DNA of 64,000 bases from Candidatus Cloacimonadales bacterium (GTDB lineage Bacteria > Cloacimonadota > Cloacimonadia > Cloacimonadales > JAIOQZ01). Within the stretch, counting starts at the first letter, position 1. Each line of letters opens with the position of its first letter. Of this stretch, positions 28,049 through 62,318 are shown one piece after another. The notes below the pieces were generated by a model, which had not been told where the DNA came from, did no database searches, and worked only from the letters and a program-made list of their open reading frames with translations. The stretch covers positions 3,008,001 to 3,072,000 of the forward strand of contig OY771587.1 of NCBI GenBank assembly GCA_963674825.1, given 5' to 3'. The translations under genes and the position numbers were made by a program.

Positions 28049-28063
28049 GAAAGCCCCCTGTGG

Positions 28064-28486
28064 TTATTCTTCCTCGTCATCCGAGTACTGGTCAACACCC
28101 CAGCCATAGAAGTAAGCTTCTTCTACGTCGTAGGAGACCTGATGGCCTTCGCCTGCCGGATGGTCAGCGGTAGAGGTGGCAACATACTTTTTCGGCGGGT
28201 TGCCAACAACTTCGAATTCCCAGTTCATTGTGGTAGATTCACCAAGTTTACAGTCTTTCAGCGCTTCTTCAACGGTGTAATCGTCGGTATTTCCAAATTT
28301 CTGCTTTTGGATGTTATAGGCATTACGGATTGCGCGAATTGCTGATTGAGGCTCAGTTGCACGAGCTTGTTCCACATAACGCATATAAATAGGTACCGCG
28401 ATGGCCGCAAGGATCGCCACGATAATAACGACAACAAGGATCTCAATAAGAGTAAATCCTTTTTGGGTTTTCAGGAACTTTGACAT
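28064..28486 (-). CDS. pilA: Major type IVa pilin
   Basis: QKG|FTLIEILVVVIIVAILAAIAVP; strong AAGGAGG RBS; first gene of the cluster. Confidence 0.88.
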   Translation of the reverse strand: MSKFLKTQKGFTLIEILVVVIIVAILAAIAVPIYMRYVEQARATEPQSAIRAIRNAYNIQKQKFGNTDDYTVEEALKDCKLGESTTMNWEFEVVGNPPKKYVATSTADHPAGEGHQVSYDVEEAYFYGWGVDQYSDDEEE

Positions 28487-43606: not shown

Positions 43607-46600
43607 CGGTCAAAAGGCGCATCTGTCCTTCTGCGATCTCGATGAACTGCTTTGCGCCGATCTGTGTGAAGAGATCAATGGCTTTTTGCAGCTTCTCGAT
43701 CGCGTCGTTTTTTTCATCTTGCTCGATGTGGATCATGGCCCAGTTGAACCACGCACGTCCCTCACCGTCTTTATCGCCAATCTCTTGCAGCATGGTCTGC
43801 TGCTTACGATAATATTCGATGGCCAGCGGGAAATCCTTTTTCATCTTGGCGACATTGCCCAGATTGCCGTAGGTATGGGCTACTCCCGCGAGGTCGTTGA
43901 GTTTCTCTTGCAGCTTGAGGTTACTTTCGTAGGTTCTCTGTGCTTTTTCAATATCACCAGCCATAAATGAAATATCACCAATGGCGTCGTAGCAATAGGA
44001 GAGCATAACACGATCGCCGATATCCTGGGCGATCGCGAGCGCTTGGGAGAAATAGCCGGCGGCATCGTCGTTCTGCTCCTGGTAATAATAGGCTTCGCCG
44101 ATGTTGTAGAGAACGATGCACTCCTGCTGTCTGTTACCGGAAAGTCTGGCCAGTTGTAGAGAATTGCGATAGGCCTCAATAGCCCTGGTATTTTCTCCAC
44201 GGTAACGCATCAGGCCTGCAATATCCATCTGCACTTTGCCGTAGCCGTCTTTATCACCCAGTTTCTCGGCTACTTCGAGTGCCTGACGATAGTAGTTCTC
44301 CGCGTTTTCGGTGTCGCCTCTCTTGAAAGCGAGAATACCCATACTGCTGAGTGCAAGCCTAACATAAACCTGATCCTTGAGCTTCTTAGCGATGTGAAAC
44401 CGTTCGTTCAGGTAGGTCTCGGCTTCGTCGTAGCGCGCTTGATCCATGTAGTACTGTTCCAGGATCGAGCAGAGTTGCAGAACAATTCGTTCATCATTGG
44501 ATTTGCGTACCTTATCGAGGTATTCGATCGCCTTTTCCTCGAAGTCACGGCCAGTCTCACGCAATGCATTCAGGTAGAGAATTTCAACCTGATTGAAGCG
44601 TCTCTTGTCGGTGAATTGATCCAGTACAGCTTCTGCAAACTGGATTTGCTCGGTGAAACGGGCGGTTTTATCGTTTAGCCGGGCGGTAAGCAAGCGATGG
44701 TAATCCAGATCGGCACCTTCGAGTATACCTGTATCGAGCTTGATGAGTCGGGTCTCGGCTTCTTTTGTGTCTCCCTGTAGCAGAAGGATATCGATAATAT
44801 GAAGTTCCATCTCGATTCGCTGCAAATCGTTACTGCAATGTTCCTGTGCGATTCGGAAGAAGTACGCGCTTTCAGTGAGAGAATAGAGCGCGAAGTTTTT
44901 ATGTGCTGCTTCAAGCGCATAGCGGAATGTTTTTTGGTGGTTTTCGGCCAGGATGTAGTGATTGGCAATCAATTCCAACCACGGATAATGGTCATTTTCG
45001 TGTTTCCGCTCGTAGTAACCTGCGATGCGATTGTGCAGGTCCCTTTTCTCGCTTCTGAGGATCGTTCTGTAGATTGCCTCGCGCATGAGGTTGTTGCTAA
45101 AGATGTATTCGATCTCGGGATTGATGTTTTTCTCGTTGATGATGGAGATCACGTTGAGCATGTGGAGGATTTCAACCACGCGCCGCGAGAATTCCGCTTT
45201 ACCGATCACTGCCAGTGAATCTACACTAAAGGCACGGCCTACGATCGATGCGATCTTGAGAAGCTGGCGCGACGATTCATCAAGGTGCTCGTATTGCCGA
45301 ATGAAAAGGTTCTCCAGGGTCTGCGGGATGATTCCCCTGCGCAGCATGATTCCAATATGCGCTTCGGTAAGTATGTTCTTTCTACAGTCGAAGTTGGTTT
45401 GGATTAGGCTGCACATTTCGCTGATGAACATTGGGTTACCGTCGGTGATGGTTGCCAGGTTTTCAACAGCGTCCCCGGCGATGTTCGGGATGTCGTCCCG
45501 GATCAGCTGCGCAGCGTGCTCTCGCTGTAGATTTCCGAGCTGGATGTGGATCGGTTTTGAGCTAGAAAGTTCATCTGCGGTGGTTTCCTCACGCGTTGTG
45601 ATCAGAACGCCAATGCCTTCGTAGAGGAGACCGGGCAGTGCGCGAAGGAAGATCGCCAGCGATTTTGTGTCCATCCATTGCATGTTATCCAGTGTAACCA
45701 TCCCGGCATCTTTCCAGAGCTCCCGCAGGATTTCGGCGAAGGTTTGCTCAACGATGCTGATCATATCGAGGTAGCCGAAATCGAGCTTGCCTTGAAGGTA
45801 TTGCCGCATGAGGTTTTCGTCGATGGCAAGATTGTGTTCGTGGCACCAAGTAACGAGCTTGTCGAGGTCATTCGGTAAGTCACCAGCGTCGATCATGCGG
45901 CCCAGGACCTTACGAATGAATTCGAGCGGAGAATTGCGACTGTATTCGTCTAAAACGTAAAGTTCAAAGCGATTTCCGTTGTTGATCTGGTGCTGCAGAA
46001 TGTTGTATGTCAGAAAAGATTTACCAACACCCGCATTTCCCGATATTATAACGAGTCTATTTGCGTTCTCATAGATACTTTGAAGTTCGCAGTCGCATCC
46101 GACCAGCGTCTGATGCTCGTATAGCTGGCGGAAGGCTGTCCAGTTCTCAGGGAGTTCACGTACCGGCGAGTAGATGTCGATTTCGTCGCGGATTCCCTTT
46201 ACCTGCACACGTTTCACGAAGCGGGATTCGAAGTGTGACTGGATTTTGGGCAGTACTTCTTGCGAAAAGGCGATTTCGCCGTATCCCGCCACAGACATAA
46301 GCCGGGCGGAGATATTCACTGCGTTGCCGATGATGCCGTATTCCCAGCGATTCTCGGTTCCGAGCGTGCCGGCGTAGATATTGCTATAGGTGATTCCGAT
46401 GCGGATTCGGATGGTCTCGGTGGGAATTTGCAGGAGTTTCCACGAGCATATGAATGCGCGCTCGGCGTCATCGAAATGGACATTGGGTACGCCAAAGGTG
46501 ATGATGAGAATGTAACCCTTATCGGTGTAGTCGATTTTGTTTATGTTACCGCCCATGGCGTAGACTTTCTGCTGTACGCGGACGTAGAATTCTTGGTAGT

Positions 46601-47351
46601 CCGCACCGTTTATAGCTGGAGTGCCTTCTGCTGGACTGATCTCGATGAAAACGATGGCGGCATTACGTAGTTCAGCGCTGAATTCCATGCCGCTGATTTT
46701 TTCTTTTACTGAGTTGCTGACAAAATTTGCAGCGAAACCACTGTCGATATTCTCGATTTCAAAAGGTTCTGAAGCTTGCGACGGTTCAATGAGTGTTTCA
46801 TATACGAGGATCTCACCGGCTTTTGCGTATTCACCTATCTCATATGCCTGTTGAAGTGCGTCTCCTACGAAATAATAATCGAGGTGGTATTTCGGGTCGC
46901 CCACAATGTGCAGTTCTGTTTTACCCCAGGATATTCCCCCGTGTATCTCGATCTGTACACCGTATTGCTCCTGATAGTAAGTGTTCAGCTCTATAAGCTG
47001 TTCGAACATCGCGCTACGGCAACGGACGATGCGGGAAAGGGACTCTTTCTTTGATCCGGGAAAAACTGAAAGGAGCGAATCACCGCCGTATTTGACGAGA
47101 TAGCCTCCATGGGTGCGAATGCAGGTGTCCATTGCGTTGAAATAGCGATTGAGAACACCAGTAATCGTCTCGACACCGTAATGACCTGATCCGCTTACTT
47201 GCTCAGTGAGATGTGTGAATGATTTGATGTCGGTAAATAGGATCCCCATCTCACTTGAATGCAGAATTGGAAGCGGTATTTGCTCGATACTAACATACTG
47301 TCGAATCAGTTCGTGAATGTTGCCGGGGATGATACCTCGCAAGTCTTTCAT
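43596..47351 (-). CDS. Tandem class III nucleotide cyclase + STAND/AAA NTPase + TPR protein (soluble-adenylyl-cyclase-like architecture)
   Basis: ILFTDIKSFT and KYGGDS (cyclase 1); DKG and GNAVNISARLM (cyclase 2); GNAGVGKS Walker A; LDNMQWMD; DGNPMF; C-terminal TPRs. Confidence 0.88.
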   Translation of the reverse strand: MKDLRGIIPGNIHELIRQYVSIEQIPLPILHSSEMGILFTDIKSFTHLTEQVSGSGHYGVETITGVLNRYFNAMDTCIRTHGGYLVKYGGDSLLSVFPGSKKESLSRIVRCRSAMFEQLIELNTYYQEQYGVQIEIHGGISWGKTELHIVGDPKYHLDYYFVGDALQQAYEIGEYAKAGEILVYETLIEPSQASEPFEIENIDSGFAANFVSNSVKEKISGMEFSAELRNAAIVFIEISPAEGTPAINGADYQEFYVRVQQKVYAMGGNINKIDYTDKGYILIITFGVPNVHFDDAERAFICSWKLLQIPTETIRIRIGITYSNIYAGTLGTENRWEYGIIGNAVNISARLMSVAGYGEIAFSQEVLPKIQSHFESRFVKRVQVKGIRDEIDIYSPVRELPENWTAFRQLYEHQTLVGCDCELQSIYENANRLVIISGNAGVGKSFLTYNILQHQINNGNRFELYVLDEYSRNSPLEFIRKVLGRMIDAGDLPNDLDKLVTWCHEHNLAIDENLMRQYLQGKLDFGYLDMISIVEQTFAEILRELWKDAGMVTLDNMQWMDTKSLAIFLRALPGLLYEGIGVLITTREETTADELSSSKPIHIQLGNLQREHAAQLIRDDIPNIAGDAVENLATITDGNPMFISEMCSLIQTNFDCRKNILTEAHIGIMLRRGIIPQTLENLFIRQYEHLDESSRQLLKIASIVGRAFSVDSLAVIGKAEFSRRVVEILHMLNVISIINEKNINPEIEYIFSNNLMREAIYRTILRSEKRDLHNRIAGYYERKHENDHYPWLELIANHYILAENHQKTFRYALEAAHKNFALYSLTESAYFFRIAQEHCSNDLQRIEMELHIIDILLLQGDTKEAETRLIKLDTGILEGADLDYHRLLTARLNDKTARFTEQIQFAEAVLDQFTDKRRFNQVEILYLNALRETGRDFEEKAIEYLDKVRKSNDERIVLQLCSILEQYYMDQARYDEAETYLNERFHIAKKLKDQVYVRLALSSMGILAFKRGDTENAENYYRQALEVAEKLGDKDGYGKVQMDIAGLMRYRGENTRAIEAYRNSLQLARLSGNRQQECIVLYNIGEAYYYQEQNDDAAGYFSQALAIAQDIGDRVMLSYCYDAIGDISFMAGDIEKAQRTYESNLKLQEKLNDLAGVAHTYGNLGNVAKMKKDFPLAIEYYRKQQTMLQEIGDKDGEGRAWFNWAMIHIEQDEKNDAIEKLQKAIDLFTQIGAKQFIEIAEGQMRLLTDES

Positions 47352-49957: not shown

Positions 49958-50010
49958 TGTTATCCTTCGACTCCACTCAGGATGTCACGGAGGGAAAATG
50001 AAGGATGACA
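49958..50010. repeat. Decayed REP-like inverted repeat
   Basis: TGTTATCCTTC/GAAGGATGACA arms enclosing ATCCTTCGACTCCACTCAGGATG. Confidence 0.45.
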
Positions 50011-50123
50011 CGAAGGAGTATAAACAAGATTACATAAAGGTTTTTCACGATTCATCCTGAAATTGAGCGTAGAAATATCTTGACTCTGGTTGTTACACTG
50101 CAAGTACTGCAAAAGGAATAAAT

Positions 50124-50906
50124 ATGGATTTAATTCGCATACGCAAGATCACACAGATTGTGTTTCTCGTCGCTTCGGTGGCGATGTTCGTGCTTCTGGC
50201 ATTCGGTATCATAGATGCCGTTGCACATGAGTTCTGCCCATTTTCTGAGGTCTGTTTTGGTCTGTTCGGGCTGAACCCGAGGGTGCAGATTTTCTTTTTC
50301 CCGGTTGCGACTATTATCGGGTTTGCACTCACGCTGATACCCCTCTTTCTGGGCAGGGTTTTCTGCAGCTACGCGTGTCCGTTCGGCACGATCCAGGAAT
50401 TGCTGTTCAAGCTACGGCGCACGAAGAAGAAATTCAAGCACCCGATCCCTTACAATATCAATCGCTACATGACGCTTATCAAATACGGCGTTCTTCTGCT
50501 CACGATCGTTGCCGCTTTTTTCGGCTGGCAGCGGATTTACATGGGTTTTTGCCCAGCGCTGGTGTTCTCGCAACCTTTGCGGATTGCGATTCCTGGAATC
50601 CTGACGCTAATCTCGCTACTGATCGGTGGATTCTGGATCGAGCGCTTTTTCTGCCGCTATCTGTGCCCATTTGCTGCGCTGATGAATCTGATGGAATATC
50701 TCGGAGGGTTCTTCGGAATCAAGCGGATCAAAATCTATCGGAATATCCAAACAAGTCTCAATTGCTTCACCTGCGCGAATTACTGCCCGATGCAGATCGA
50801 TATAGGATATCTGGAGACCATCGAGAGCCCGAATTGTATCCAGTGCCGACTGTGCGTTCGGAAATGTTCAAAGAAAGACGCGTCCTGCTGTTGCTATCGG
50901 GATTAG
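50124..50906 (+). CDS. Membrane 4Fe-4S binding protein (NapH/MauN/YccM-like)
   Basis: GRVFCSYACPFG, ERFFCRYLCP, CFTCANYCP, CIQCRLCVRKC. Confidence 0.88.
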   Translation: MDLIRIRKITQIVFLVASVAMFVLLAFGIIDAVAHEFCPFSEVCFGLFGLNPRVQIFFFPVATIIGFALTLIPLFLGRVFCSYACPFGTIQELLFKLRRTKKKFKHPIPYNINRYMTLIKYGVLLLTIVAAFFGWQRIYMGFCPALVFSQPLRIAIPGILTLISLLIGGFWIERFFCRYLCPFAALMNLMEYLGGFFGIKRIKIYRNIQTSLNCFTCANYCPMQIDIGYLETIESPNCIQCRLCVRKCSKKDASCCCYRD

Positions 50907-50909
50907 CGT

Positions 50910-51584
50910 TTAAACCCTTATCGGATTGACCGCTGTAACCGACGTCACCGTCGTAGTGACGATTTCGTTGAGGTCGTTGACCGCTTTATTGACCGCCTGA
51001 CCGATCAGATCCATCTTTGATAGCTGAACGATTCTCTTGTAGGCCTGTTTGCGCTCACTCGGCTCGAAGAGCTCATCCACCAGATCACACGCCTGAATCA
51101 AGCTGATGATGACCACATCGCGTGGATCGGGAAGCTCGTCGGTGAGAATGATGTGGCGGATTCGGGTGCGGACTTCCGTCTCCTGGGTGTTGTCGATCAT
51201 GGGATAACGACGCGTCGAGAATACCCAGAGAATCTTGTGCTCATCCACCTTCAGGATACCTCGATCAACCAATCTCTGTAACAGAACATCCTTTATATTC
51301 TGGTAGTTACAGGCAATTTCCTGAACCCAACACTTTGCGCTTTTCTCGTGCGATACGAGCTGCGATAGGACTGTGTCGAGCGTTTTATCGCCTGTAGGTG
51401 TATTGTCGGTTACGTCCAGCAACTTGAGGTCTGTATCGATTCGATTGAGAAATGCGAGCTCCATCAGGATAGCGCCAGCGAGCGCATATTCGAGTGACAT
51501 GGACGGCATTTCTACGAAAGAGCCCTTGTCGTCATTGATTGCCAGCAGGAGCAGTTCTTCAGCAAAAGTCAATTCTCTGGTCAT
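50910..51584 (-). CDS. GPP34 (GOLPH3/Vps74) family protein
   Basis: LTFAEELLLLA, ALAGAILMELAFLNRI, PTGD..LD, LVDRGIL, RRYP. Confidence 0.85.
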   Translation of the reverse strand: MTRELTFAEELLLLAINDDKGSFVEMPSMSLEYALAGAILMELAFLNRIDTDLKLLDVTDNTPTGDKTLDTVLSQLVSHEKSAKCWVQEIACNYQNIKDVLLQRLVDRGILKVDEHKILWVFSTRRYPMIDNTQETEVRTRIRHIILTDELPDPRDVVIISLIQACDLVDELFEPSERKQAYKRIVQLSKMDLIGQAVNKAVNDLNEIVTTTVTSVTAVNPIRV

Positions 51585-53203
51585 AATTCCTCTATAGTCA
51601 GTATGATCTTGTCTTTATCTGTGGGAATGAAGCAGGCGTATCGCGCATCCGGCATCATTCGGTCACGGAATGCGTCTGTTTCTGATACAAAAATGACCGC
51701 TCGTTTGAGATATTGTAAAGGGATTTCTTGGTTTTGTTCGGCCAGGCGTTCAATGACGCGCCGTTTATCGATTTCCTGTGCACGCAGATATTCCGGGAAC
51801 CAGTGGCTGTTCGCAATTTCACACCAGTCCCAGCGCAGGCAGTCGATTGCCTCATAGTCGTCACCTATGTAATGAACCAGATGTTCTGCCTGTACCTGCC
51901 AGGTTGCGCTCTGCAGCGGGATATCGTTGGCTTCCCACCAGTCGAGTAAGTTCTGATAGAAGTCGTATGGAGTCGTAGCGCGCTGGACGAGGTGGTCGAT
52001 GGTCTGGGAGAATTTCTCACTGTTGTAGAAGATGTCCACCAGCCTTGCGATGCGGATGAGACGAGATATTTTCTGGAACGACACCCAATTAGTGCGCAGG
52101 ATATGGTACGGTGGATTCGCCATGCAGTCGAACTCGCTGTCATCCAGGAAGATGTTTGTTCCTGGCAGCACCTTGAGGAAACCCATTTGGAAGTGATCCG
52201 GCTTGAGCGCGTAGATGCGGTTAAAGCTTTCTCGTATATGCTCTTCTGTCTGGTATGGTAATCCGCATATCATGTCGAGGTGGATATGGATATTTCCCGG
52301 TTCGATGAGCTGTTTGAGGATGGGCTCCACATTCGTCCATGATTCATTGCGGTTGATGGCGCGCAGGATTTCATCGTGGGTCGATTGGATGCCGGCTTCG
52401 AACTGGAACAGGTGTGGCGGTGCAGACGTCAACAGGTCGAGATCCTTTTGGCGCAGCAGATTGGGATATACTTCGAAGTGGAATCGTGTTGTCGGGTTCA
52501 GCTTGATCAGGTGTTCCCAGATGGCATAAGCATATTCGGGATCGGCGTTGAAGGAGCGATCGACGAGTTTGACAATGTTCGGTTTGTGAGACGATAGCCA
52601 CTCCAGTTCCGGTAGAACTTTATCCAGGCCGCGCTTTTCAAGCTTGTGCCGTGAAGAAACGCAGTAAGAACAATTGAACGGGCATCCACGACTCGCCTCG
52701 TAGTAGATGTACTTGCCTTTCAGCGACTGCATATCCTCGTCGGTGTATAGGAAGGGGAGAGAAGAGAATCCCCTTTTGTTCCCTTTTATCAAGGGGGTGA
52801 GAGAGGAATCCGTTGCTTCACTTTCAGCCTCTATCATTTCCCGGAATGGAATCTCACCGAAGCCTTCGATGATGTGATTCTGCTCTCCGGCCAGCTTCGA
52901 CCAGAACTCTGGATTACCGCTGACTTCCGGGCCGCCGAGTACGAGCTTTGCGTCGGGGAGTATGGCTTTCAATGCCGGCACGATCTCTTGAAATAGCACA
53001 GAGTTCCATATGTAGATGGAGAGCGCGATCAGGTCGGGCTTGTGACGCCCGATCTCGGAGAGAATCTCGAGCGATGGTTGATGGATGGTGAATTCCTGGA
53101 TACGCACGTGATGCGATAGGTCTGCGATTGCACTGCGTAGATAATACAATGCCGGGCACGAGTGTGTAAAACGGCTATTGATAGCAACAAGCGAGATGTT
53201 CAT
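51581..53203 (-). CDS. B12-binding radical SAM protein with DUF4080-like C-terminus
   Basis: SIYIWN, LGGPEVS, YYEASRGCPFNCSYC, VDRSFN, HLDMICGLP, GFLKVLPGT. Confidence 0.9.
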   Translation of the reverse strand: MNISLVAINSRFTHSCPALYYLRSAIADLSHHVRIQEFTIHQPSLEILSEIGRHKPDLIALSIYIWNSVLFQEIVPALKAILPDAKLVLGGPEVSGNPEFWSKLAGEQNHIIEGFGEIPFREMIEAESEATDSSLTPLIKGNKRGFSSLPFLYTDEDMQSLKGKYIYYEASRGCPFNCSYCVSSRHKLEKRGLDKVLPELEWLSSHKPNIVKLVDRSFNADPEYAYAIWEHLIKLNPTTRFHFEVYPNLLRQKDLDLLTSAPPHLFQFEAGIQSTHDEILRAINRNESWTNVEPILKQLIEPGNIHIHLDMICGLPYQTEEHIRESFNRIYALKPDHFQMGFLKVLPGTNIFLDDSEFDCMANPPYHILRTNWVSFQKISRLIRIARLVDIFYNSEKFSQTIDHLVQRATTPYDFYQNLLDWWEANDIPLQSATWQVQAEHLVHYIGDDYEAIDCLRWDWCEIANSHWFPEYLRAQEIDKRRVIERLAEQNQEIPLQYLKRAVIFVSETDAFRDRMMPDARYACFIPTDKDKIILTIEEL

Positions 53204-53923
53204 TTATGAGCCGATGCGAGGTAAAATATCTTCTACCGCGCGTTGGTAATCCTCCGGGAAATCGATTTCGATACAGGCGTAATCCTGTGTGGGAACAGCG
53301 ATGAGCTTGTGTTTTTTTGCAAGCAGATCGACAGCCCACTCGAAATAATTTTGATTCAGCTTCTGATCAACGCCTTGCTGAAGGCATTCCGCGAAGTCGG
53401 GTAGCACGTTACGAGTGAATTTACCAATGCCGATGAATTCGCCGGCACAGTCCTTCGGATCCAGTTTTTTACCGATCTCGAGGATGCGGTAGTCGTTGTC
53501 GATGACCATCTTGACCTCTTCCTCGGCGCAACGCTTGGTCTCGAGCAACAGCTCGGGATATCCGTGGTCTTCCTTGATCAGATCGAGGAGCTTGGGATCG
53601 AATAAGATATCTGCGTTGAAATAGAGAAAGTCGTCGTCAAAATTCTCTCTGGCCAGCCACAGCGAGTAGATGGTGTTGGTTGTACGGTAATCGGGATTGT
53701 ACACTACGGTGAAGCTCTCGAGAACTTCACCGATGTGCGTTTTCATTTTATCGATCTCATAGCCAAGTACGAAAACGAAATCCTCGATACCAATGCGCAG
53801 GCATGCACCGATCATATGGTGCAGCAGCGATTTGTCACCGATTTGCAGCATGCTTTTAGGTAAACCGTTCGTGACGGGATGTATTCGTTTCCCATATCCA
53901 GCTGCGAGAATTATGGCTTTCAT
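53204..53923 (-). CDS. Phosphocholine/phosphonate cytidylyltransferase-family nucleotidyltransferase
   Basis: AIILAAGYGKR...PK, NPDYRTTNTIYSL, EEEVK, GEFIGIGKF, EIDFPED. Confidence 0.85.
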   Translation of the reverse strand: MKAIILAAGYGKRIHPVTNGLPKSMLQIGDKSLLHHMIGACLRIGIEDFVFVLGYEIDKMKTHIGEVLESFTVVYNPDYRTTNTIYSLWLARENFDDDFLYFNADILFDPKLLDLIKEDHGYPELLLETKRCAEEEVKMVIDNDYRILEIGKKLDPKDCAGEFIGIGKFTRNVLPDFAECLQQGVDQKLNQNYFEWAVDLLAKKHKLIAVPTQDYACIEIDFPEDYQRAVEDILPRIGS

Positions 53924-53928
53924 ATTTT

Positions 53929-55467
53929 CTATCTGTACTGCAACATTTCACGCAGTTGAGCACGATTGTGTGCGCTTTCCAGTGCATTTTCAGGACTGAT
54001 CAGACCCTTGCGAGAAAGTGCGTACAGATCCTGCTCCATCGTTTGCATGCCAACTTTCTGGCCTTGCATGATAAGCGTGTAAAGCTCGTTGATGTTGTTG
54101 TTCTGGATGGCTTGTTTGGTTTGGGCTGTGTTTATGAAAATCTCTTTTGCATGAACCATCGATTGTCGCGTTCCAGGAACAAGCTGTGTCGAGATTATCG
54201 AATTGATCGCCTGAGAAACCGCGACTCTTATCTGATCCTGCTCACCAGCAGGGAAGAGATTGAGTATCTTCTGGATCGCTTCGGTGGTGGATTTGCTGCG
54301 CATCGTGGCATAAACCATCGTGCCGGAATCGACCAGCTTAAAGATCGTTTCGGCGACATCCGGATAGCGAATATCCTCTACAACGACCAGGTTCGGATTG
54401 TAGTCCAGGCAACTTTTCAGGCCATCAACGAGGCTGTTGACATCGCTGTGGATTTCCTGCTGGCGAACCAGACATTTGCGTGATTCGTGATAGTATTCGA
54501 TGGAATCTGAGAGCAGGAAGATGCTCCCGTTTCCGTTCTGATTGTTGTAATCGACCAGTGAATCGATCATCGTACTCTTGCCTGATCCTGCCGGCCCGGT
54601 AAAGATGACCAGTCCGCCGTTGTCATTACGGAGTGTGATTCGGTTGAGAAGTGCCGATGGAAGCGTGAACATGTCGATTGGTGTAACTTCACGCCGAGTA
54701 GGTTTGATGCAGACGACCATTTCATTTAGCTCAAAGTACGCTTTAACGCGATAACGATAGAGCACGTCTTCTGCCTGGAATTCGTGATTGAATTTCAGAT
54801 ATTTCTGCTTCAGCATCAGGTCCAGCTCTTCTTTGCTGAGGATACTAAGAATCATGATATTAATCTCGTCCTGATTGAAAGTTCTTTCGACCTCAAAGGG
54901 AATGAAGCGATTTTTGATCTTCGCCCAGATGCGTCCTTTGGAGCCGTGACCACCCATCTCGACATAGGACGCGCCCTGATTTTCGATAAACAGCAGGAAT
55001 TCTTCGAGCTTGTTGAACACCTTTTCTTGAAGGTCGGGATTGGTGTTCAGCTTATCTTTGAGGCGTTTCAGTTTGTCGTTAGTCGTGGTGCGGAAGAGTT
55101 GACGCCGTTCGATCAGTCCAAGCTCAACAACCTGCAGGAATTCCTTCATATTGATCGGCTTGGTGAGGAACCGGAACGCTCCGTAGTTGAGTGCTTCGCG
55201 GGTGTATTCCATGTCGTCGTAGCCGGTGACGATGATCACGATGGCATCGGGATCGATCATCTTGAGCACTTTCATGAAATCGACACCGTTCATCTCGGGC
55301 ATCATGATGTCAGTGATGTACAGGTCGAAGCTCTTTTCACCTGCAAGGCGGAAGGCTTCCTGACCGTTTTGTGCTTCATGGATCTCGTAGTCTTCGGTTT
55401 CCAGAAAGTTCCGGTAAAGTTCGCGAATTTCAGGTTCGTCGTCAATGATCAGGATTCTTGGTCTCAT
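53929..55467 (-). CDS. Response-regulator receiver domain fused to a degenerate PilT/PilU-like ATPase
   Basis: Receiver: IIDDE, ITDIMMP, VTG, LTKP. PilT-like: RYRV, GPAGSGKST, DSIEYYHES...VRQQEI, GMQTMEQDL. Confidence 0.85.
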   Translation of the reverse strand: MRPRILIIDDEPEIRELYRNFLETEDYEIHEAQNGQEAFRLAGEKSFDLYITDIMMPEMNGVDFMKVLKMIDPDAIVIIVTGYDDMEYTREALNYGAFRFLTKPINMKEFLQVVELGLIERRQLFRTTTNDKLKRLKDKLNTNPDLQEKVFNKLEEFLLFIENQGASYVEMGGHGSKGRIWAKIKNRFIPFEVERTFNQDEINIMILSILSKEELDLMLKQKYLKFNHEFQAEDVLYRYRVKAYFELNEMVVCIKPTRREVTPIDMFTLPSALLNRITLRNDNGGLVIFTGPAGSGKSTMIDSLVDYNNQNGNGSIFLLSDSIEYYHESRKCLVRQQEIHSDVNSLVDGLKSCLDYNPNLVVVEDIRYPDVAETIFKLVDSGTMVYATMRSKSTTEAIQKILNLFPAGEQDQIRVAVSQAINSIISTQLVPGTRQSMVHAKEIFINTAQTKQAIQNNNINELYTLIMQGQKVGMQTMEQDLYALSRKGLISPENALESAHNRAQLREMLQYR

Positions 55468-55482
55468 ATGTCTAAATACTCC

Positions 55483-56811
55483 TTAGTCGGATTCGGTCCA
55501 GCGAGTCACTCTTCGCTCTCCGGTATCTGGAATTCCCGGAGGTGATTTCGTTCTGAATCTGTTATCGTACACGATTCGTTCTTTAAAGCCCTTTGGCTGC
55601 GCGAGGTTACCGTTCCAGGTAACGATGGGCTTGCTCTGGAGTCGGCTTCCAAAGGTAGTCCAGAACCCATAGTATTTTCCACCCCAGTTCTGGATTGTGA
55701 TATCGTTTGGTGTGACGATATTCGCCATGATCATGCATCCGGGCCATTCTCCGCCGAGGTCGTAATGTTTATCGGCAGGAATGAATATCTCATCAGCAAT
55801 GAGCCCCAGCATATCTTCGGAATCTTCCGGGACGCTGGGGATGCCTTCTGCGTTCTGGGTTGCGTCGCTATAGATGATATCTCCATCGATGAACATATCC
55901 TTCGATGTCTCGATGCTCAGGTTGCCCTTGATGGTTCCCTGAATGTGCAGATCTCTTTTAGCAACGATAACATGGCTGGTTATATCTGCAATATCCATCG
56001 TAACGACGTGAGTTCCGGTTTTATTCTGAAGGGTTATTGAACCGTCTGCAAAGAAGTAAACGAAGATATCGCCTACGGATGACGGGAACAGGGTTTCGAT
56101 ATCGAGCGGTGTTCCTGTCACTTTGGAGTAGTCAATAGAGAGTGCTGATGTGTTAAACGGAATTACGCGGTGAGTGAAGTCGTTATTATCGCCTGTAAGG
56201 CCTGTGTAGTCGGCTCCGGGGATATCGTCTTCGTCATAGTAGTGTCCGCTACCGCGAATGTAGAGGCCACCGGATGTTGTCAGGTTTCCGTTGAAGATGG
56301 GTCCGGGATAAAATACGCCCGAATGCCAACGGTCTCTATCGATACGGAATGCATCGTTGCAGTGAACAGGTCCCCAGAAATCTTCGCCGGTTCCATACCA
56401 GCCTCCTGTGAACTTGTTTACGAAGTAGGCATAGTAGGAGTATGGAAGCTCCCAGTCGGCGACTGTCACTGTTACACTTTCACCATCAATGTCGGCGGTG
56501 GATGTTATAACAACTTCTCCCGTTGAAGCATCACGTTCCACAACGACTTTTATATCGCCGCGAAGAGGAGTTGATATCTTGTGATCTTCACTGATGCTTG
56601 CCATGTATTCCGGTGTATCACGGAATGAAGCTGACCGAATCAAGTCGAGCTTCTGATAGGCATAGCTATTCGCCACGTTGAGCGCGACGCGTTTATTATA
56701 CAGCTCGATCGTCTCGCGAAGCGCCGCTTCTTCAGGGCCTTTCGCGCTTATCATCATGTAGGAGATGGACACAAACAGTGCCATCACAACGTATATTGCA
56801 TATCTTCCCAT
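55483..56811 (-). CDS. Large PilX-like pilin (DUF4900/ComZ-like) with a minimal leader
   Basis: MG|RYAIYVVMALF hydrophobic N-terminus; FWGPVHCND; DMLGLIA; YDNRFRTKSPPGIP, matching the locus-1 paralogs. Confidence 0.7.
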   Translation of the reverse strand: MGRYAIYVVMALFVSISYMMISAKGPEEAALRETIELYNKRVALNVANSYAYQKLDLIRSASFRDTPEYMASISEDHKISTPLRGDIKVVVERDASTGEVVITSTADIDGESVTVTVADWELPYSYYAYFVNKFTGGWYGTGEDFWGPVHCNDAFRIDRDRWHSGVFYPGPIFNGNLTTSGGLYIRGSGHYYDEDDIPGADYTGLTGDNNDFTHRVIPFNTSALSIDYSKVTGTPLDIETLFPSSVGDIFVYFFADGSITLQNKTGTHVVTMDIADITSHVIVAKRDLHIQGTIKGNLSIETSKDMFIDGDIIYSDATQNAEGIPSVPEDSEDMLGLIADEIFIPADKHYDLGGEWPGCMIMANIVTPNDITIQNWGGKYYGFWTTFGSRLQSKPIVTWNGNLAQPKGFKERIVYDNRFRTKSPPGIPDTGERRVTRWTESD

Positions 56812-56829
56812 GGTATCCTCCCGGGTTGA

Positions 56830-57411
56830 TTACCAGTCCCAAATGCACTTCAAAAAGATAATACCTTCTCCGATTGCCATAGCCCGATCTCCATCGGTAT
56901 GTCCGGCATCGGCTCCATAAGTGTCTTCGCTTTCCATTGTGAATTTGTATCCAACAAATTGAATATCATTTGTGTTGGTCGTTTCATTGTAATTATTATC
57001 GTAATATGTGAATTTGAAACTTGTTACGCCCATGAAACCATCGTTGATCGTTTTACCGTTCACAGTGAATTCGACGTTTCGGTCGTTAAGAGTCGGTGTG
57101 GGATCTTCAACCCAAGGTTTGTATGCGATGGAAACGGTATCCATAACGCTATCGTCATCGATATCCGCGACGAAAACCAGTTTCTTGGCGTCAGCTATAG
57201 TGATCGCCTTCTCGATATTGGAAACGGATCGTCCTACGTTTTTAATCTGGTTGCGTAGGACTTCCTTGAGCAGCTCGGAATATGACTGCTCGCGGTAGGT
57301 CAACGTTGCCTCGATATTGGACTCATAGGTGCTGATCTGCATCTTGAAGACAAGCGATATCAACATCATCGTAAGGATGAAAGCGCCAATGATTTCAAGT
57401 GCTGTTTGCAT
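56830..57411 (-). CDS. PilW/GspJ-like pilin without a prepilin leader
   Basis: M-QTALEIIGAFIL; FVADIDDDSVMDTV; GVTSFKFTYYD. Confidence 0.68.
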   Translation of the reverse strand: MQTALEIIGAFILTMMLISLVFKMQISTYESNIEATLTYREQSYSELLKEVLRNQIKNVGRSVSNIEKAITIADAKKLVFVADIDDDSVMDTVSIAYKPWVEDPTPTLNDRNVEFTVNGKTINDGFMGVTSFKFTYYDNNYNETTNTNDIQFVGYKFTMESEDTYGADAGHTDGDRAMAIGEGIIFLKCIWDW

Positions 57412-57426
57412 CGCTCACCTCCTCTT

Positions 57427-57822
57427 CTATAGCTCTGTAAAAACGTGCTGAAGCTCGATCGTGAATGTCTGGCTTTGATCCTGGACAAGGACTTTCAGCA
57501 GCTTATAATTTGTCGTGAGCGTTGTTTTTGCAAAGCCATTCGAGTTGAACGCCGCGAAGTCGATGCTCGAGGTAACTCTGAATGTGTCAGCTCCAAAATC
57601 AACTTTGTCCCACTTCCCATTCTTGTCGAATTCATCTTCCAGATCATCGAAATCCACCGACCATCCGCGTTCGATGATCGACTGAGCAAGTGAGACCGCA
57701 TCGTTCTGAAGCTGGCTGTTGATGGTGGATTCGGCTGTATTCTTTTTGTGCGTGTTCATGGTGACCACAAGGTTCATGAACAGGAAGATCGCGATCAGAA
57801 CATAGAGGTATTGGCTTCCCAT
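57427..57822 (-). CDS. PilV/GspI-like pilin with a minimal leader
   Basis: MG|SQYLYVLIAIFLF; AVSLAQSIIE; FDDL; YKLLKVLV. Confidence 0.65.
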   Translation of the reverse strand: MGSQYLYVLIAIFLFMNLVVTMNTHKKNTAESTINSQLQNDAVSLAQSIIERGWSVDFDDLEDEFDKNGKWDKVDFGADTFRVTSSIDFAAFNSNGFAKTTLTTNYKLLKVLVQDQSQTFTIELQHVFTEL

Positions 57823-57830
57823 AAGTTCTC

Positions 57831-59606
57831 CTAATCGGTTGTTGTCGAGAGGACGTCGTTAAGGTCGGCGACACCCTTGCGGACAAGCTCGATACCGGCC
57901 TGACGCAGTGACAACATTCCCTGTTTCTCGGCGATGCGCCTGATTTTGTTTTCGTCGATATCGGATTTCGAATCCAGAATAGCCTGCTGTATTTCGTGGG
58001 AGAAGAACAGCGTTTCGTGAATACCGGCGCGGCCTTTGAAGCCTGTCCCGCGACAAAGATCACAGCCCACCGGTTCGAAAACTTTGCCTTCGAGGATTTC
58101 TTCGGTAGTGATACCGTATTGCTCATATATTTTTGCGTTTTCTTTCGACACGGGTCGCTTGCAGGCTTTGCAGAGTTTACGCACAAGGCGCTGCGCAACG
58201 ATAATATTAATCGCGTTGGCCATCAAGAATGTCTCAATCTGCATTTTATACATACGAGAGATAGCGCTGGGTGCGTCGTTAGTATGCAGCGTCGCGAAAG
58301 TAAGGTGACCGGTGTTCGCGAGCTTGATACCGATTTCAGCTGTCTTCTTATCGCGAATCTCACCAACCATGACGATATCGGGGTCGTGACGAAGGATCGC
58401 GCGGAGTGCGAGGTCGAAGGTACATTTCGGGCTGATCTTGATCTGACGAGCGCCTTTGACGACATACTCGACCGGTTCCTCGACAGTCAGTGCGTTACGT
58501 TCCGGTGTCATTACGTGATAGAGTGTTGCAAGAAGCGTGGTACTTTTACCGGAACCGGTAGGTCCCGTGATGATCACCATACCTTGTGGCTTCGCGACGG
58601 CTCTTTCAAAGTCGCGTCTCGATTGTGACAGGAAGCCAAGATCGTCGATGTTGTCGATGACGTTACGGTCATCCAAAATACGAATAACGATACTCTCGAA
58701 ATGCCGTTCCATTTCGCGGGAAACAATCGGCAGGATCGAGACACGGAAACGGATTGTATAACCGTCGATGTCACGCTGGATGAATCCGTCTTGAGCCTCG
58801 TCGATCTTGAAACGATCCACACCCAGCGACCGGTCTTTCACCACAGCCTGGAACGCCTGCGGGTTGATGTTTTCCTTCCGTTTCCAGAGGGTTAGCTTAC
58901 CGTCGATACGGAACATAATGTCGGTAGTTTTCACATCAAATGGTATGATGTGAATATCACTAACCTTGTTCTTGACAGCTTCCACCAGAGCCGCTTCGAA
59001 GAGATAGACAAGTGCGCCTTTGTTGATTTCCTGATTGATCAGATCATCGTCGTCCGTCTTCTTGGAATCCTCGATGGCATTGATATCGATGGTTCCTTCT
59101 TCGGTACCGAGCAGGTCGAGGAATTCGTTTTCATCTTTCTGCACGATGTCGATAAGGCGCTTGATTTCGTCGAAAGGTGTATAGACGATCTCGTAGCGTT
59201 TGACTTTGGAGTAGGAGGCGATTTCTTTTGCGAAGCTATCGGTAGGATTAGAAGCCAGGATAATCAGAGTCTCGATGCGCTTCTTCTGAATCTTATAGGG
59301 GATAATCTTTTTCTGCAGGGCTTCGTTTTTTACGTCCTTCGGAAGCGAATCAAGCAGCTGCGTGATTTCTTCGATGTCGTCTTCGCTCAATTTCTCCGGC
59401 GAGATATTCATCTTGGAAATAGCGTAAAGCTTGGCTACCTCGGTGTACAGACGGTCCCTGTCAACCTGATATTGGTCGATGAGAATCTCTTCAAGCGTCT
59501 GGGTGTTGTCTGGTTTGTCCAGCTTGACCCTGGCCGCGTTGAGAATCTCTTCGGTAATGATATTCTTGAGAACGAGCAATTTTCCTAAAAACTGATTTTC
59601 TTTCAT
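57831..59606 (-). CDS. pilB: Second PilB/GspE-family extension ATPase (locus 2)
   Basis: SDIHIIP, FRIDG, AQDG, GPTGSGKST, VEEPVEY, LRHDPDIVMVGEIRD, TGHLTFATLHTNDA, CKAC...CDLC. Confidence 0.92.
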   Translation of the reverse strand: MKENQFLGKLLVLKNIITEEILNAARVKLDKPDNTQTLEEILIDQYQVDRDRLYTEVAKLYAISKMNISPEKLSEDDIEEITQLLDSLPKDVKNEALQKKIIPYKIQKKRIETLIILASNPTDSFAKEIASYSKVKRYEIVYTPFDEIKRLIDIVQKDENEFLDLLGTEEGTIDINAIEDSKKTDDDDLINQEINKGALVYLFEAALVEAVKNKVSDIHIIPFDVKTTDIMFRIDGKLTLWKRKENINPQAFQAVVKDRSLGVDRFKIDEAQDGFIQRDIDGYTIRFRVSILPIVSREMERHFESIVIRILDDRNVIDNIDDLGFLSQSRRDFERAVAKPQGMVIITGPTGSGKSTTLLATLYHVMTPERNALTVEEPVEYVVKGARQIKISPKCTFDLALRAILRHDPDIVMVGEIRDKKTAEIGIKLANTGHLTFATLHTNDAPSAISRMYKMQIETFLMANAINIIVAQRLVRKLCKACKRPVSKENAKIYEQYGITTEEILEGKVFEPVGCDLCRGTGFKGRAGIHETLFFSHEIQQAILDSKSDIDENKIRRIAEKQGMLSLRQAGIELVRKGVADLNDVLSTTTD

Positions 59607-59607
59607 C

Positions 59608-60954
59608 TTATGCACCTGGCGTGGGTGGACGCATGAATGCGCTTTCCGAGGAGACAACAATCAGAGCCGTCATCACCACGAGGATGAACAATGCCGTTAA
59701 GACATCTATCGTTTGGAGAATCGATTGGAATTTATACTTTGTTTCTTTCTCATAATAAGCAGCGATCTGGAAGGCCGCGTTCTTCACAGAACCCGTTGCG
59801 GAACCTGCGTTCAAACGTGTGATCGCGGTATCCGTAAATACTTCCGATGCCTCAATCGCATCAATCAGGCCGGCACCTTCCTTCAGCATGCGAGGGATTG
59901 TAATTTCTTTGATCTGGCGCTCCATATGTGCGTTGCCACAGGCTTCTGCAGCAATCTGGAGGACTTCGATGTTGTTTCCCGAACCGCTATAAACGATTGA
60001 GAATACGCGGAAGAAAATCTCGATATTCATTTTGTGGATCAGGCCGCCAATGACTGGAATCTTGATGATATTCTTGTCGCGCCACAGCCTTCCCTTAGGT
60101 GTTGTGAACCACCACAGTACAAATGCGATGGGTATGATAAAAGCAAGTGCCAGCCACCACCAGTTATCCTGGAGGAAATAGCTGAGCTGCATGGTCGCAG
60201 CCGTCATGGGAGGGAGGTCCATCTTGAACCGGATGAACATCTCCGTGATTTCCGGGAAGAGTTTGCCGACATAGTAACCGATCGCGCCCAGGATCGCAAG
60301 GAATGTAACAATGGGCATCACCAGAGCCTGACGCAGGTTCTTCTGAAAGTCCGCCTGGCGAGTCAGGTATTCGGCTGTACTCTTGTAGATTTCCGCCATG
60401 TTACCGGACTTCGATGCCAAACCGAGCATGTAGGACGTGAACTTGCCGAACACATCCGAATACTTCTGGAAGACACTCATACCGTCCTGGCCCTGACGCA
60501 AATCGCGCGAGATACCTTTAACTGCGGTACGCAGCGTTTTATTCTGCACGTCGGTAGCGTGGATCTTGAGGATTTCGTCGAACTTCATGTTCTCATTGAG
60601 CATGTCAGCCGTGATGGAGATAAACATCACGATATCGCCAAACGGTGGCTTGAGCCGCAGGTTCATAAGGTTCGGTTCGACAGCGATATTTTTGTATCCG
60701 AGGCTGGCAAGCGCGTTCTGAAGCTCATCCTTCGTAAACGCGTCCTGCTCACCCTTTACTTTCTTGCCTTGCGATGTGACAGCCTTGTAGAGGAAGGATT
60801 TTTTCTGCTCGACTTTTTGCACGCCAAAATTATGCTCAAGCGCAAGCTGATTGATCTTCTTGCGTGCCATAGCCAGGCTCGCTTCGTAGATCGTACCACG
60901 CACGATTTTCTTGGTGTCTCGCTTTACGCCTTGATAGCGGAATTCCTTCAGCAT
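59608..60954 (-). CDS. pilC: Second PilC/GspF-family platform protein (locus 2)
   Basis: Two GspF-like helical domains with TM helices (SKSGNM, DLPPMT, KIPVIGGL, GSATGSV). Confidence 0.85.
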   Translation of the reverse strand: MLKEFRYQGVKRDTKKIVRGTIYEASLAMARKKINQLALEHNFGVQKVEQKKSFLYKAVTSQGKKVKGEQDAFTKDELQNALASLGYKNIAVEPNLMNLRLKPPFGDIVMFISITADMLNENMKFDEILKIHATDVQNKTLRTAVKGISRDLRQGQDGMSVFQKYSDVFGKFTSYMLGLASKSGNMAEIYKSTAEYLTRQADFQKNLRQALVMPIVTFLAILGAIGYYVGKLFPEITEMFIRFKMDLPPMTAATMQLSYFLQDNWWWLALAFIIPIAFVLWWFTTPKGRLWRDKNIIKIPVIGGLIHKMNIEIFFRVFSIVYSGSGNNIEVLQIAAEACGNAHMERQIKEITIPRMLKEGAGLIDAIEASEVFTDTAITRLNAGSATGSVKNAAFQIAAYYEKETKYKFQSILQTIDVLTALFILVVMTALIVVSSESAFMRPPTPGA

Positions 60955-61010
60955 TAGCCCAATCCTTATAATTACAGTTTTTCTCTAATGAGAATATAAC
61001 CTCAACCGTG

Positions 61011-61039
61011 ATATTGCGCAGATTTTTTCATTCTGTCAA
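61011..61039 (-). promoter_or_regulatory. sigma70-type promoter candidate for locus 2
   Basis: TTGACA-N17-CAATAT, about 56 nt upstream of the pilC2 ATG. Confidence 0.5.
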
Positions 61040-61496
61040 CAAAAAACCTTTCGTCGCGGTGGGTTTTCCGCTTTGGAAAACGATTTCAACCTAAAAATGC
61101 CACATGGTTTTGACCGATTGAGGCGATAATGCTAATAAAGTATTTTAAGATTCTTTGTCAAGAACGTACTCACTTATTAATGAGTAATATTCATATTTAA
61201 TGGACGGCCGTAAGTTCATTATTGTGTAATAAATTGCATGTCAATAAAATACGAAAACATGCTACTTAAAAGAATGTAAGGATTTTTTTATTGTATACCG
61301 ATCGTGATAATCGTGACAATGCCAAGTAGATGATGTACATTCAAAAATTGATCAACCAAATTTGTCTATTTTCTGAAGATCGCTTGGATTGGGGGTTTCA
61401 GGCATGTGGTTCAGATTCATTATAGAACTGGTTGACAAAGAAGTGCATTCGTACGTTTTTCGTTCGATAGCGTAATATACTTACATTGGAGGAATT

Positions 61497-62318
61497 ATGA
61501 CAATGCAGAATCCACATCAGCCTTCAAATGAAAAACTTGAAGCGACCCTGAAAAGGATAAAACATAAAATAGTTATTCTCAGCGGAAAAGGCGGCGTCGG
61601 TAAAAGCACCGTCGCGGTCAATCTCGCGTATGGCCTCGCGCTTGCAGGCCGAAGAGTCGGTCTGATCGACACCGATCTTCATGGACCATCTTTGGCTAAG
61701 ATGCTGGGAATCGAGGGACGTCGCTTCGAACTGGGCGAAGATGGTCTTCCCGGCCCCATCCGTGTTCACGACAATCTTTTCGCGGTTTCCATCGCGACCA
61801 TGCTTCCGAGCGAAGATGAACCAGTCATCTGGCGCGGTCCGCTTAAAATGGGAGCGATTCGTCAGTTCCTGGAAGAAATCTCCTGGCCCGAACTTGATTA
61901 CCTCATCGCAGACTGCCCTCCCGGAACGGGCGACGAGCCGCTTTCCATCGTGCAGCTTCTCGGTAAGGTCGATGGTACCGTGATCGTCTCGACACCGCAG
62001 GATGTCGCATTTCTTGACGCTCGTAAGACTATTAACTTCTCGCACAAACTCACGATACCTGTGCTTGGTATCATCGAGAACATGGCATCGTTTTTCTGCC
62101 CACATTGCGGCAAGCCGATCAGCATCTTCGAAGGTGAAGGAACCAAGAAAGCAGCGGACGATTTCGGTATCGATATTCTGGGCAGCATCCCGATCGATCC
62201 GGATATTGCCAAATCAAGCGATGCAGGACGCCCGTACATCTACGATTTCGGAAAGATGGATGGTGCGAAGGCTATGCAGGGAATTACAACAAAAATCATA
62301 GAAAAAGTGGAGGGCTAA
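61497..62318 (+). CDS. mrp: Mrp/ApbC/NBP35 iron-sulfur cluster carrier ATPase
   Basis: SGKGGVGKST, DLHGPS, VIWRGP, DCPPGTGDE, STPQ, ENMA..CPHC. Confidence 0.93.
   Translation: MTMQNPHQPSNEKLEATLKRIKHKIVILSGKGGVGKSTVAVNLAYGLALAGRRVGLIDTDLHGPSLAKMLGIEGRRFELGEDGLPGPIRVHDNLFAVSIATMLPSEDEPVIWRGPLKMGAIRQFLEEISWPELDYLIADCPPGTGDEPLSIVQLLGKVDGTVIVSTPQDVAFLDARKTINFSHKLTIPVLGIIENMASFFCPHCGKPISIFEGEGTKKAADDFGIDILGSIPIDPDIAKSSDAGRPYIYDFGKMDGAKAMQGITTKIIEKVEG

Follow-up and report, generated by a model that had tools for sequence, protein, structure and literature searches.

Does a gene that joins an intact receiver domain to a PilT-like ATPase with altered catalytic motifs encode a working pilus motor, a decaying one, or a regulator built on a motor? 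The question is raised by an open reading frame (ORF) of Candidatus Cloacimonadales bacterium (assembly GCA_963674825.1, contig OY771587.1) found at 53929-55467 on the minus strand of the 64,000-nucleotide stretch analysed here (the window, positions 3,008,001 to 3,072,000 of the contig), which we refer to as rec-pilT' and its product as rec-PilT'. The residue pattern common to 32 family members, purifying selection, linkage to the pilus genes pilC2 and pilB2, descent from the lineage of a second PilT-like protein (PilT2), and a distribution complementary to that of a regulator with a receiver and a cyclic-nucleotide-binding domain (REC-cNMP) are the observations from which we argue. The reading that we favour, with a probability of roughly 0.55, is that rec-PilT' works as a phosphorylation-switched, ATP-bound dummy motor which would regulate the second type IV pilus system of this organism (PilB2, PilC2, PilT2) and would not itself pull.

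A conserved receiver-PilT fusion confined to few genomes

The ORF encodes 512 aa and contains no internal stop, in agreement with the initial annotation, which had described it as full length and free of frameshifts. Pfam matches identify a receiver (Response_reg, aa 5-114, E 3.7e-32) and a T2SSE domain (aa 283-451), and sequence homology over aa 154-501 covers both the PAS-like N-domain and the RecA-like C-domain of PilT, with PilT structures as the best PDB sequence matches (E 1e-56 to 1e-46). Against the NCBIfam model TIGR01420 (pilT_fam) rec-PilT' scores 221.8 bits over aa 181-503, short of the curated cut-off of 319.1, and the canonical PilT of the window (26993-28048) scores 482.2 bits. 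The C-terminus ends level with that of PilT and carries no PilU-type extension. All of the motifs that had been quoted for the protein are present in its translation as written, namely the receiver residues D9-D10, D53, T81 and K103-P104 and, in the motor, Walker A (aa 291-299), the Asp box (319-325), Walker B (362-367), the His box (382-390) and the segments at 253-257 and 449-456. To judge from its sequence rec-PilT' is a real and conserved protein of the PilT/VirB11 kind that falls outside the PilT motors, and it is in this sense that we infer its function below.

A protein search returned 25 full-length homologues of 512-516 aa with 46-88% identity to the query together with two partial ones, and pooling these with the genome loci gave 32 distinct sequences, 30 of them at <90% identity, whose ATPase parts have a mean pairwise identity of 0.50 and a lowest of about 33%. 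The gene was found in 14 of the 232 Cloacimonadota genomes compared, all of them metagenome-assembled, with 12 full-length copies and two that are partial or split between contigs (G034, G010), and the relatives are labelled Candidatus Cloacimonadota. Among 185,579 species genomes only 13 loci matched beyond the receiver, 12 of which are titled Cloacimonadota or Cloacimonadales while the thirteenth is an 8.4-kb contig of a Sphaerochaetaceae metagenome-assembled genome, perhaps mis-binned. A profile search of 1.84 billion representative sequences recovered the family as two matches (P0011, P0122) before dropping to generic PilT and receiver proteins, and a metagenome scan gave seven full-length loci among 80, several apparently duplicating loci already collected. 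One genome (G013) carries two copies (L042 and L043), a stand-alone one 49% identical to the query and a more diverged one (42%) inside a pilus cluster; L043 sits on a long branch.

Nucleotide-binding residues are retained and hydrolysis residues are lost

The 32 rec-PilT' sequences were set against those of 21 canonical PilT and 48 PilT2 proteins of relatives. Residues are numbered as in Pseudomonas aeruginosa PilT (PDB 3JVU), with which the PilT of the window runs colinear as far as residue 270 or so. Walker A (54571..54597) retains G135, K136 and S137 (G296, K297 and S298 of rec-PilT') in all 32 sequences, and the Asp box (54493..54513) likewise retains E163, which is E324 in rec-PilT'. R80 is kept in 31/32. 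Of the two arginine fingers of the N-domain, R82 (R240) is retained in 27/32, and the equivalent of R97 (K255) is Lys in 31/32. A different picture emerges at Walker B (aa 360-367, 54367..54390), where the catalytic E204 is Asp in 28 sequences and Glu in four, G203 is Glu or Asp in 30 and Gly in one, and Gly203 and Glu204 never occur together. In the His box (aa 381-391, 54295..54327) H229 has been replaced throughout, by Arg in 16 sequences and by Lys in the other 16, and H222, R176 and R194 are each retained in 0/32. Both intact families keep E204, H222, H229, R176, R194 and R97 without exception. Extending the comparison to the 61 positions that are invariant in both intact families, rec-PilT' keeps 24, K136, E163, R80 and R82 among them, and loses 37, including E204, H222, H229, R176, R194, R206, D207, T132, D17 and D70; E258 and R239 are also altered.

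These changes exceed what would be expected by chance given that 138 PilT-family domains, drawn from 127 members of the 148-protein set P0123-P0270, retain E204 in 135 cases, H229 in 129 and R194 in 134, as against four, none and none of the 32 rec-PilT' sequences. Conversely, 32 positions are at least 90% conserved solely within the rec-PilT' family. Within the family, Glu stands at position 204 on four distinct branches and position 229 switches between Lys and Arg, a pattern in which the charge class is conserved and the exact geometry is not.

According to a study of PilT-like ATPases, the last Glu of the Asp box coordinates Mg, the Glu following Walker B activates water and the second His contacts the gamma-phosphate, with Gly203 standing where the usual Mg-binding acid would be (PMC5424180). 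E204A and H229A each abolish twitching in P. aeruginosa, only H230 and E164 of the His and Asp boxes touch ATP or Mg in the numbering of Geobacter metallireducens, and contacts of the closed interface include H230-T221, T221-T133 and R195-D161 (PMC6858323). Read in this light, the rec-PilT' motor has kept the residues that bind ATP and Mg and has lost those for hydrolysis or cycling. The suggestion in the initial annotation that the protein binds nucleotide and hydrolyses it poorly thus gains support from a pattern common to the orthologues, and no orthologue with canonical motifs was seen among the homologues. Two of the signs of inactivity on which it had relied say nothing on that point. 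The first Glu of the Asp box (E159) is also lost in PilT2, where it is Gly in 45/48, and the AIRNLIRE motif, absent and variable in rec-PilT' (aa 449-456, 54100..54123), is likewise absent from PilT2, in which E204, H222, H229, R194 and R176 are intact in 48/48. E324, the sole residue of the Asp box that contacts Mg, is invariant, and the proper comparator is PilT2 (G000:C1:693358-694569 in the source genome, G000) rather than the canonical PilT of the window that had been used.

The receiver (aa 1-120, 55108..55467) shows no comparable loss. D10, D53, T81 and K103 are invariant in all 31 full-length members and position 100 is Phe or Tyr in 30/31, which are canonical features of PF00072.

The rec-pilT' gene is under purifying selection

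Ratios of nonsynonymous to synonymous substitution rates (dN/dS) were obtained against three congeneric genomes and are approximate. They amounted to 0.030-0.037 for the whole gene and to 0.043-0.055 for the ATPase C-domain where dS was computable. The C-domain dN of 0.07-0.09 is about fivefold that of PilT and PilT2 (0.009-0.016), and that of the receiver (0.011-0.016) matches the low level of the intact motors. Conservation under purifying selection, an earlier proposal for this gene, is borne out by the dN/dS of 0.03-0.055 together with substitutions common to the orthologues. Recent decay or a frameshift is excluded by the constant length of the homologues, the conserved substitutions and dN/dS.

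Linkage to a second type IV pilus system

The source genome has three PilT-like genes, comprising the canonical pilT, which sits in a complete pilus operon within the window, rec-pilT', and pilT2 (403 aa). The last of these lies about 2.4 Mb from rec-pilT' and is followed by PilM-like and secretin genes. Throughout the phylum the second system, hereafter system 2, is arranged as pilC2, pilB2, pilin-like genes, REC-cNMP, pilT2, a pilM-like gene, a gene of no known identity and a secretin gene. In 12 of 13 genome loci pilB2 is found upstream of rec-pilT' on the same strand, and rec-pilT' follows either pilB2 or the pilin-like genes, which is the slot that REC-cNMP occupies in other genomes. Two metagenome loci (L181 and L185) both show the order pilC2-pilB2-rec-pilT'. 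In one relative (L139) the three pilin-like genes of the window are followed by REC-cNMP and pilT2.

REC-cNMP was detected in 149 of the 232 genomes at E<=1e-12 (151 at 1e-3, with weak matches in G003 and G147) and in 0 of the 14 rec-pilT' genomes. The REC-cNMP proteins (L014:559-1413 and 25 homologues) combine an intact receiver with a cNMP-binding domain that Pfam recognises weakly (E 1e-3 to 3e-6), and a Pfam scan detected no DNA-binding domain in them. They apparently lack the phosphate-binding Arg. REC-cNMP is likely a regulator of the pilus motor found across the phylum.

Probable origin of rec-PilT' from adjacent regulator and motor genes

The ATPase part of rec-PilT' forms a single clade (support 100) in a quick tree that has a long stem to the family. 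In the same tree its sister group is made up of PilT2 and of four PilT2-like proteins that the profile and homologue searches had returned, with a value of 99 in the Shimodaira-Hasegawa-like approximate likelihood ratio test (SH-aLRT). Topologies were compared by the approximately unbiased (AU) test on 46 rows, 29 of the 75 being left out. The test rejected descent from canonical PilT (p=3.9e-5). It did not reject a placement of rec-PilT' among the PilT2 sequences of the fusion genomes (p=0.41), a result that is no proof of such nesting. The helical linker of rec-PilT' (aa 121-150, 55018..55107) retains part of the N-terminal extension of PilT2 and is the likely fusion junction. The motor is therefore of the PilT2 lineage and not of canonical PilT.

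As for the other half of the protein, a receiver tree on 122 columns joins the fusion receivers with those of REC-cNMP (SH-aLRT 90, an unstarred node), and 25 of 26 REC-cNMP receivers outscore all but one of the 65 other receivers of the source genome. The receiver is thus likely derived from the REC-cNMP gene that precedes pilT2 elsewhere. The simplest history, as read from these sequences, would be a single event in which one duplication and the fusion of two adjacent genes was followed by loss of catalysis.

The source genome also encodes a 733-aa protein (G000:C1:3573607-3575808 (+), equal to L178:3608-5806, with homologues in L176 and L177) with a receiver that shares 55% identity with the rec-PilT' receiver and groups with it, nested, in the receiver tree. 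Its C-terminal part has no recognisable Walker A; language-model features liken this part to McrB-like AAA proteins (score 0.90), which is no more than a lead. It is possibly a second receiver-pseudo-NTPase on the same kinase as rec-PilT'.

Subunit interface and docking surfaces

Two charged residues that are invariant in both intact families, D70 and R194, are mostly Lys and Asp in rec-PilT'. The first (K225, 54793..54795) lies in the PAS-like N-terminal motor domain (aa 151-265, 54673..55017) and the second at D355 (54403..54405), and together they would make up a swapped inter-subunit charge pair. Lys at position 70 is accompanied by an acid at 194 in 18/19 rows and non-Lys by a non-acid in 11/13. 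By mutual information with average product correction the pair comes ninth among 51,040 pairs of columns, each residue being the top partner of the other. The equivalent of R194 touches the N-terminal domain of the next subunit in PilU (PMC13142100) and points into the neighbouring subunit's site in DotB (PMC6153414). We infer an interface that has been retained and re-keyed in favour of self-assembly, and the charge swap disfavours the earlier idea that the protein mixes into PilT hexamers.

The segment equivalent to AIRNLIRE is among the least conserved of rec-PilT', at 0.47 as against 0.73 in PilT2, and the motif has been modelled at the PilT-PilC interface in a recent preprint (10.1101/2025.10.30.685630). 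Docking on PilC through the usual surface, also proposed initially, is for this reason disfavoured. The linker and helix 196-205, in contrast, are more conserved in rec-PilT' than in PilT2 (0.84 vs 0.44), and a conserved helix at aa 196-210 is specific to the family; either the receiver or a partner might dock on the linker and helix 196-205.

Prediction of a rec-PilT'/PilT2 complex gave a score of 0.33 where the best of three controls gave 0.00, with at least 81% contact agreement between runs and a confidence (predicted local distance difference test) of 81-82 for the partner. Weak support of this kind has to be read against a calibration in which the same mark was reached by 116/157 solved complexes and 2/215 mismatched pairs, and at scores <=0.60 by 18/157 solved complexes and both mismatches. 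The result may reflect mere likeness to solved PilT homo-oligomers.

A proposed phosphorylation-switched dummy motor and its alternatives

We propose that a duplicated pilT2 was fused to the receiver of the REC-cNMP gene upstream of it and that the product took over the feeding of two-component signals to the motor. In this scheme rec-PilT' would bind Mg-ATP with slow or no turnover and would form its own oligomer, the D70/R194 pair having been re-keyed to K225/D355. Phosphorylation of D53 would alter how the receiver packs against the conserved linker and helix 196-210, and would in this way turn on, or turn off, the binding of rec-PilT' to the machine of system 2. Once bound, the protein would act as a brake or clutch in the manner of the ATP-locked PilT E204A, a role that is plausible, and the target and sign of regulation are the weakest steps of the proposal. 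In Vibrio cholerae the E204A strain is hyperpiliated and its PilT considered ATP-locked. PilT without ATPase activity remains able to bridge PilU, and each of these two motors assembles into homohexamers of its own (PMC6821130). A stronger form of the proposal, which we hold only tentatively, has rec-PilT' as a dedicated PilT/VirB11 pseudo-enzyme, an ATP-locked dummy hexamer that assembles only with itself through a re-keyed interface and that a two-component kinase switches in and out of the motor socket as a parking brake. Were the proposal correct, regulation by a decoy motor, in which a non-hydrolysing copy of a retraction motor is wired to a phospho-receiver, would represent a different design. 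The protein is also a natural experiment on PilT catalysis, with binding separated from hydrolysis residues and an apparent inter-subunit charge pair swapped, through which ring specificity and ATP-locked states become open to study on soluble recombinant proteins. Genomes allow its evolutionary path to be read, as the fusion of adjacent regulator and motor genes and the subsequent disarming of the motor copy.

Several points weigh against this proposal. The dS values are near or at saturation, which is what makes the dN/dS values approximate. The fusion-genome PilT2 sequences form one clade, so the mutual exclusion with REC-cNMP counts as one lineage event and not as 14; moreover, completeness is only 68% and 82% for two of the 14 fusion genomes, and G003 gives a weak REC-cNMP match (E 3.9e-4). 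The covariation of K225 and D355 loses significance once kinship is corrected for (a sign test on four independent pairs gave a median p of 0.5), the choice of this pair followed inspection of the same alignment, Lys is absent at 225 in 13/32 rows, a literature search on contacts of D17, D70, R176 and R194 found no paper, and no direct D70-R194 contact was found in the literature consulted. The variable AIRNLIRE equivalent would leave docking on the machine unexplained, and no cognate kinase was identified, there being none among the window ORFs scanned; a kinase-like gene of about 700 aa occurs near the locus in relatives, but with an NtrC-like neighbour of its own. Finally, Glu204 is retained in 4/32 sequences, and a Walker B with two acids together with Lys/Arg at 229 could form a rewired, slow active site.

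This last point leads to the alternative of a genuine ATPase, in which Glu364 and Asp365 would supply the standard acidic pair of Walker B while Lys/Arg390 would act in cis as a phosphate finger, replacing Arg194 and making rec-PilT' a phosphorylation-activated switch ATPase or accessory motor. Both Walker B positions are indeed acidic (30/32 and 32/32), residue 229 is basic in 32/32, E163 and Walker A are invariant, and the change of Gly203 to Glu would restore the canonical acid that PilT-type Gly replaces (PMC5424180). There are also four independent receiver-PilT fusions with intact motifs (P0136, P0141, P0154, P0191), and receiver control of an active PilT has therefore evolved elsewhere. 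Catalytic bases are normally invariant, however, and here the position toggles between Asp and Glu on four branches; the closed-interface network linked to hydrolysis (H229-T220-T132 and R194-D160, PMC6858323) is broken at H229, T132 and R194, and the ATPase domain evolves about fivefold faster than the intact motors. We regard a rewired enzyme as rather unlikely. Somewhat less probable still is a poison subunit that joins mixed hexamers of PilT2, or of PilT, and stalls the ring when phosphorylated. It would suit a PilT2 paralogue, PilT2 being found in 13/14 rec-pilT' genomes, and the PilT2 complex prediction points weakly the same way. It has to contend with the changes D70 to K and R194 to D, which would oppose like charges at a PilT2 or PilT neighbour if, as we suppose, the two residues pair, with further alterations at D17, R176, E258 and R239, and with the separate PilT and PilU rings of V. 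cholerae (PMC6821130).

If selection kept the receiver alone, rec-PilT' could be a slowly decaying relic or phosphate sink with a vestigial motor, which would fit a receiver dN about fivefold below that of the ATPase domain and the long branch of one of the two G013 copies (L043). The ATPase-domain dN/dS is nonetheless still about 0.04-0.055, the length is constant at 512-516 aa in the 25 full-length homologues, the 32 positions of at least 90% conservation are peculiar to the family, and neither Walker A nor E324 varies in a set of sequences with a mean identity of 50%. Selection has already largely refuted such a relic, which we consider very improbable.

Comparison with known pilus motors and regulators

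Functional analogues are TadZ/CpaE of Tad pili and ArlH/FlaH of the archaellum, which regulate the motors of type IV filaments and bind ATP with weak hydrolysis or none, and TadZ/CpaE has in addition an atypical receiver-like domain in front of its MinD/ParA-type ATPase. The nucleotide-binding domains of TadZ and ArlH are MinD/ParA-like or RecA/KaiC-like and are not copies of the motor. From TadZ/CpaE rec-PilT' differs in matching Pfam T2SSE and not ParA/CbiA and in having a canonical receiver.

With the PilT proteins of P. aeruginosa (3JVU), Aquifex aeolicus (2GSZ) and G. metallireducens (6OJX) rec-PilT' shares the two-domain motor, Walker A, Glu163 and Arg80/Arg82; it differs from them in its N-terminal receiver, the replacement of Glu204, His222, His229, Arg176 and Arg194, the lack of AIRNLIRE and a score below the TIGR01420 cut-off. 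Cloacimonadota PilT2, its sister group, similarly has an N-terminal extension and has lost Glu159 and AIRNLIRE, but keeps the hydrolysis residues in 48/48 and has no receiver; no description of PilT2 was found in the literature searched. PilU, an accessory retraction ATPase that depends on PilT, is likewise a PilT paralogue without AIRNLIRE and acts on the machine indirectly (10.1101/2025.10.30.685630). Unlike rec-PilT' it carries a C-terminal extension, which binds PilT, its catalytic motifs are intact, and its function requires ATPase activity of its own. DrdR of Xanthomonas campestris, a tandem receiver protein, directly affects the ATPase activity of PilB and PilT, yet it is a free-standing REC-REC protein with no motor domain (PMC13507683). 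Geobacter and Myxococcus PilT paralogues keep all motifs (PMC5065972, PMC13584747), and known control of pilus motors proceeds through separate effectors, second messengers and small inhibitors, mostly on PilB (PMC11656802).

Receiver-PilT fusions are not unique to the rec-PilT' family. Among 54 long hits scanned, four (P0136, P0141, P0154, P0191, one cluster being named Gemmatimonadaceae) have the same domain order with receiver and catalytic motifs intact, and they fall outside the PilT2/rec-PilT' clade, which marks them as independent fusions. Degenerate PilT domains are scattered elsewhere (P0135, P0222, P0268). Tandem double-PilT proteins of about 540-1020 aa, some of which have a single degenerate domain or two (P0123-P0131, P0135, P0139, P0204, P0268), and fusions of PilT to HEAT-repeat, HD and MshEN domains were also seen among the PilT-family matches. 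Judged by result listings, the open-access literature yielded no paper on a receiver-PilT fusion or a PilT pseudo-ATPase, and no switched dummy-motor regulator of pili was found in the literature searched. A survey of Cloacimonadota mentions only the presence of type IV pilus genes (10.1101/2021.10.08.463351).

Other features of the locus and the window

The system-2 genes upstream of rec-pilT' all lie on the minus strand. The nearest (55483..56811) encodes a 442-aa pilin-like protein with an N-terminal hydrophobic segment and no Pfam match, whose homologue precedes REC-cNMP and pilT2 in L139, followed by minor-pilin-like genes of 193 aa (56830..57411) and 131 aa (57427..57822), the extension ATPase gene pilB2 with intact motifs (57831..59660, likely start ATG near 59603) and the platform gene pilC2 (59608..60954). 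An N-terminal motif of about 50 aa occurs twice in tandem in PilC2 and once in PilC1, and a profile of the first PilC2 copy matches the second in 26/26 PilC2 proteins tested (E 4e-6 to 0.06 per sequence). Closely after rec-pilT' lie a nucleotidyltransferase gene and a gene for a B12-binding radical SAM protein (51581-53923, minus strand); the nucleotidyltransferase adjoins rec-pilT' in L031-L035, L041, L159 and L185 and not in L036, L038, L040 and L043. A scan of 50000-62000 gave 16 promoter-like signals against 14.9 expected and six terminator-like signals against 11 expected and was uninformative.

The likely major pilins of system 2, of 130-160 aa, have a two-residue leader and no Glu5 and escape the N_methyl-type pattern (G000:C1:2504785-2505806 and 3662720-3663133; L038, L131, L133, L140, L143, L148, L149, L157); in relatives they adjoin pilC2. 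PilT2 (G000:C1:693358-694569 (+), equal to L179:9359-10567) has an N-terminal extension within its 403 aa and all hydrolysis residues intact, its Asp box is without both first acids and a conserved motif of its own replaces AIRNLIRE. Some genomes have a second, stand-alone pilT2 copy (L138, L150, L163, L165, L167, L168).

Elsewhere in the window, 10250-28486 (minus strand) holds a complete canonical type IVa pilus operon with pilin, pilT, minor pilins, pilMNOPQ, an Ig-repeat protein, pilB1 and pilC1, and the source genome thus encodes two pilus systems. The pilB1 product carries a cyclic-di-GMP-binding MshEN motif. A further gene at 43596-47351 (minus strand) encodes a protein of 1251 aa in which two guanylate/adenylate cyclase domains are combined with an AAA_16 NTPase and tetratricopeptide repeats.

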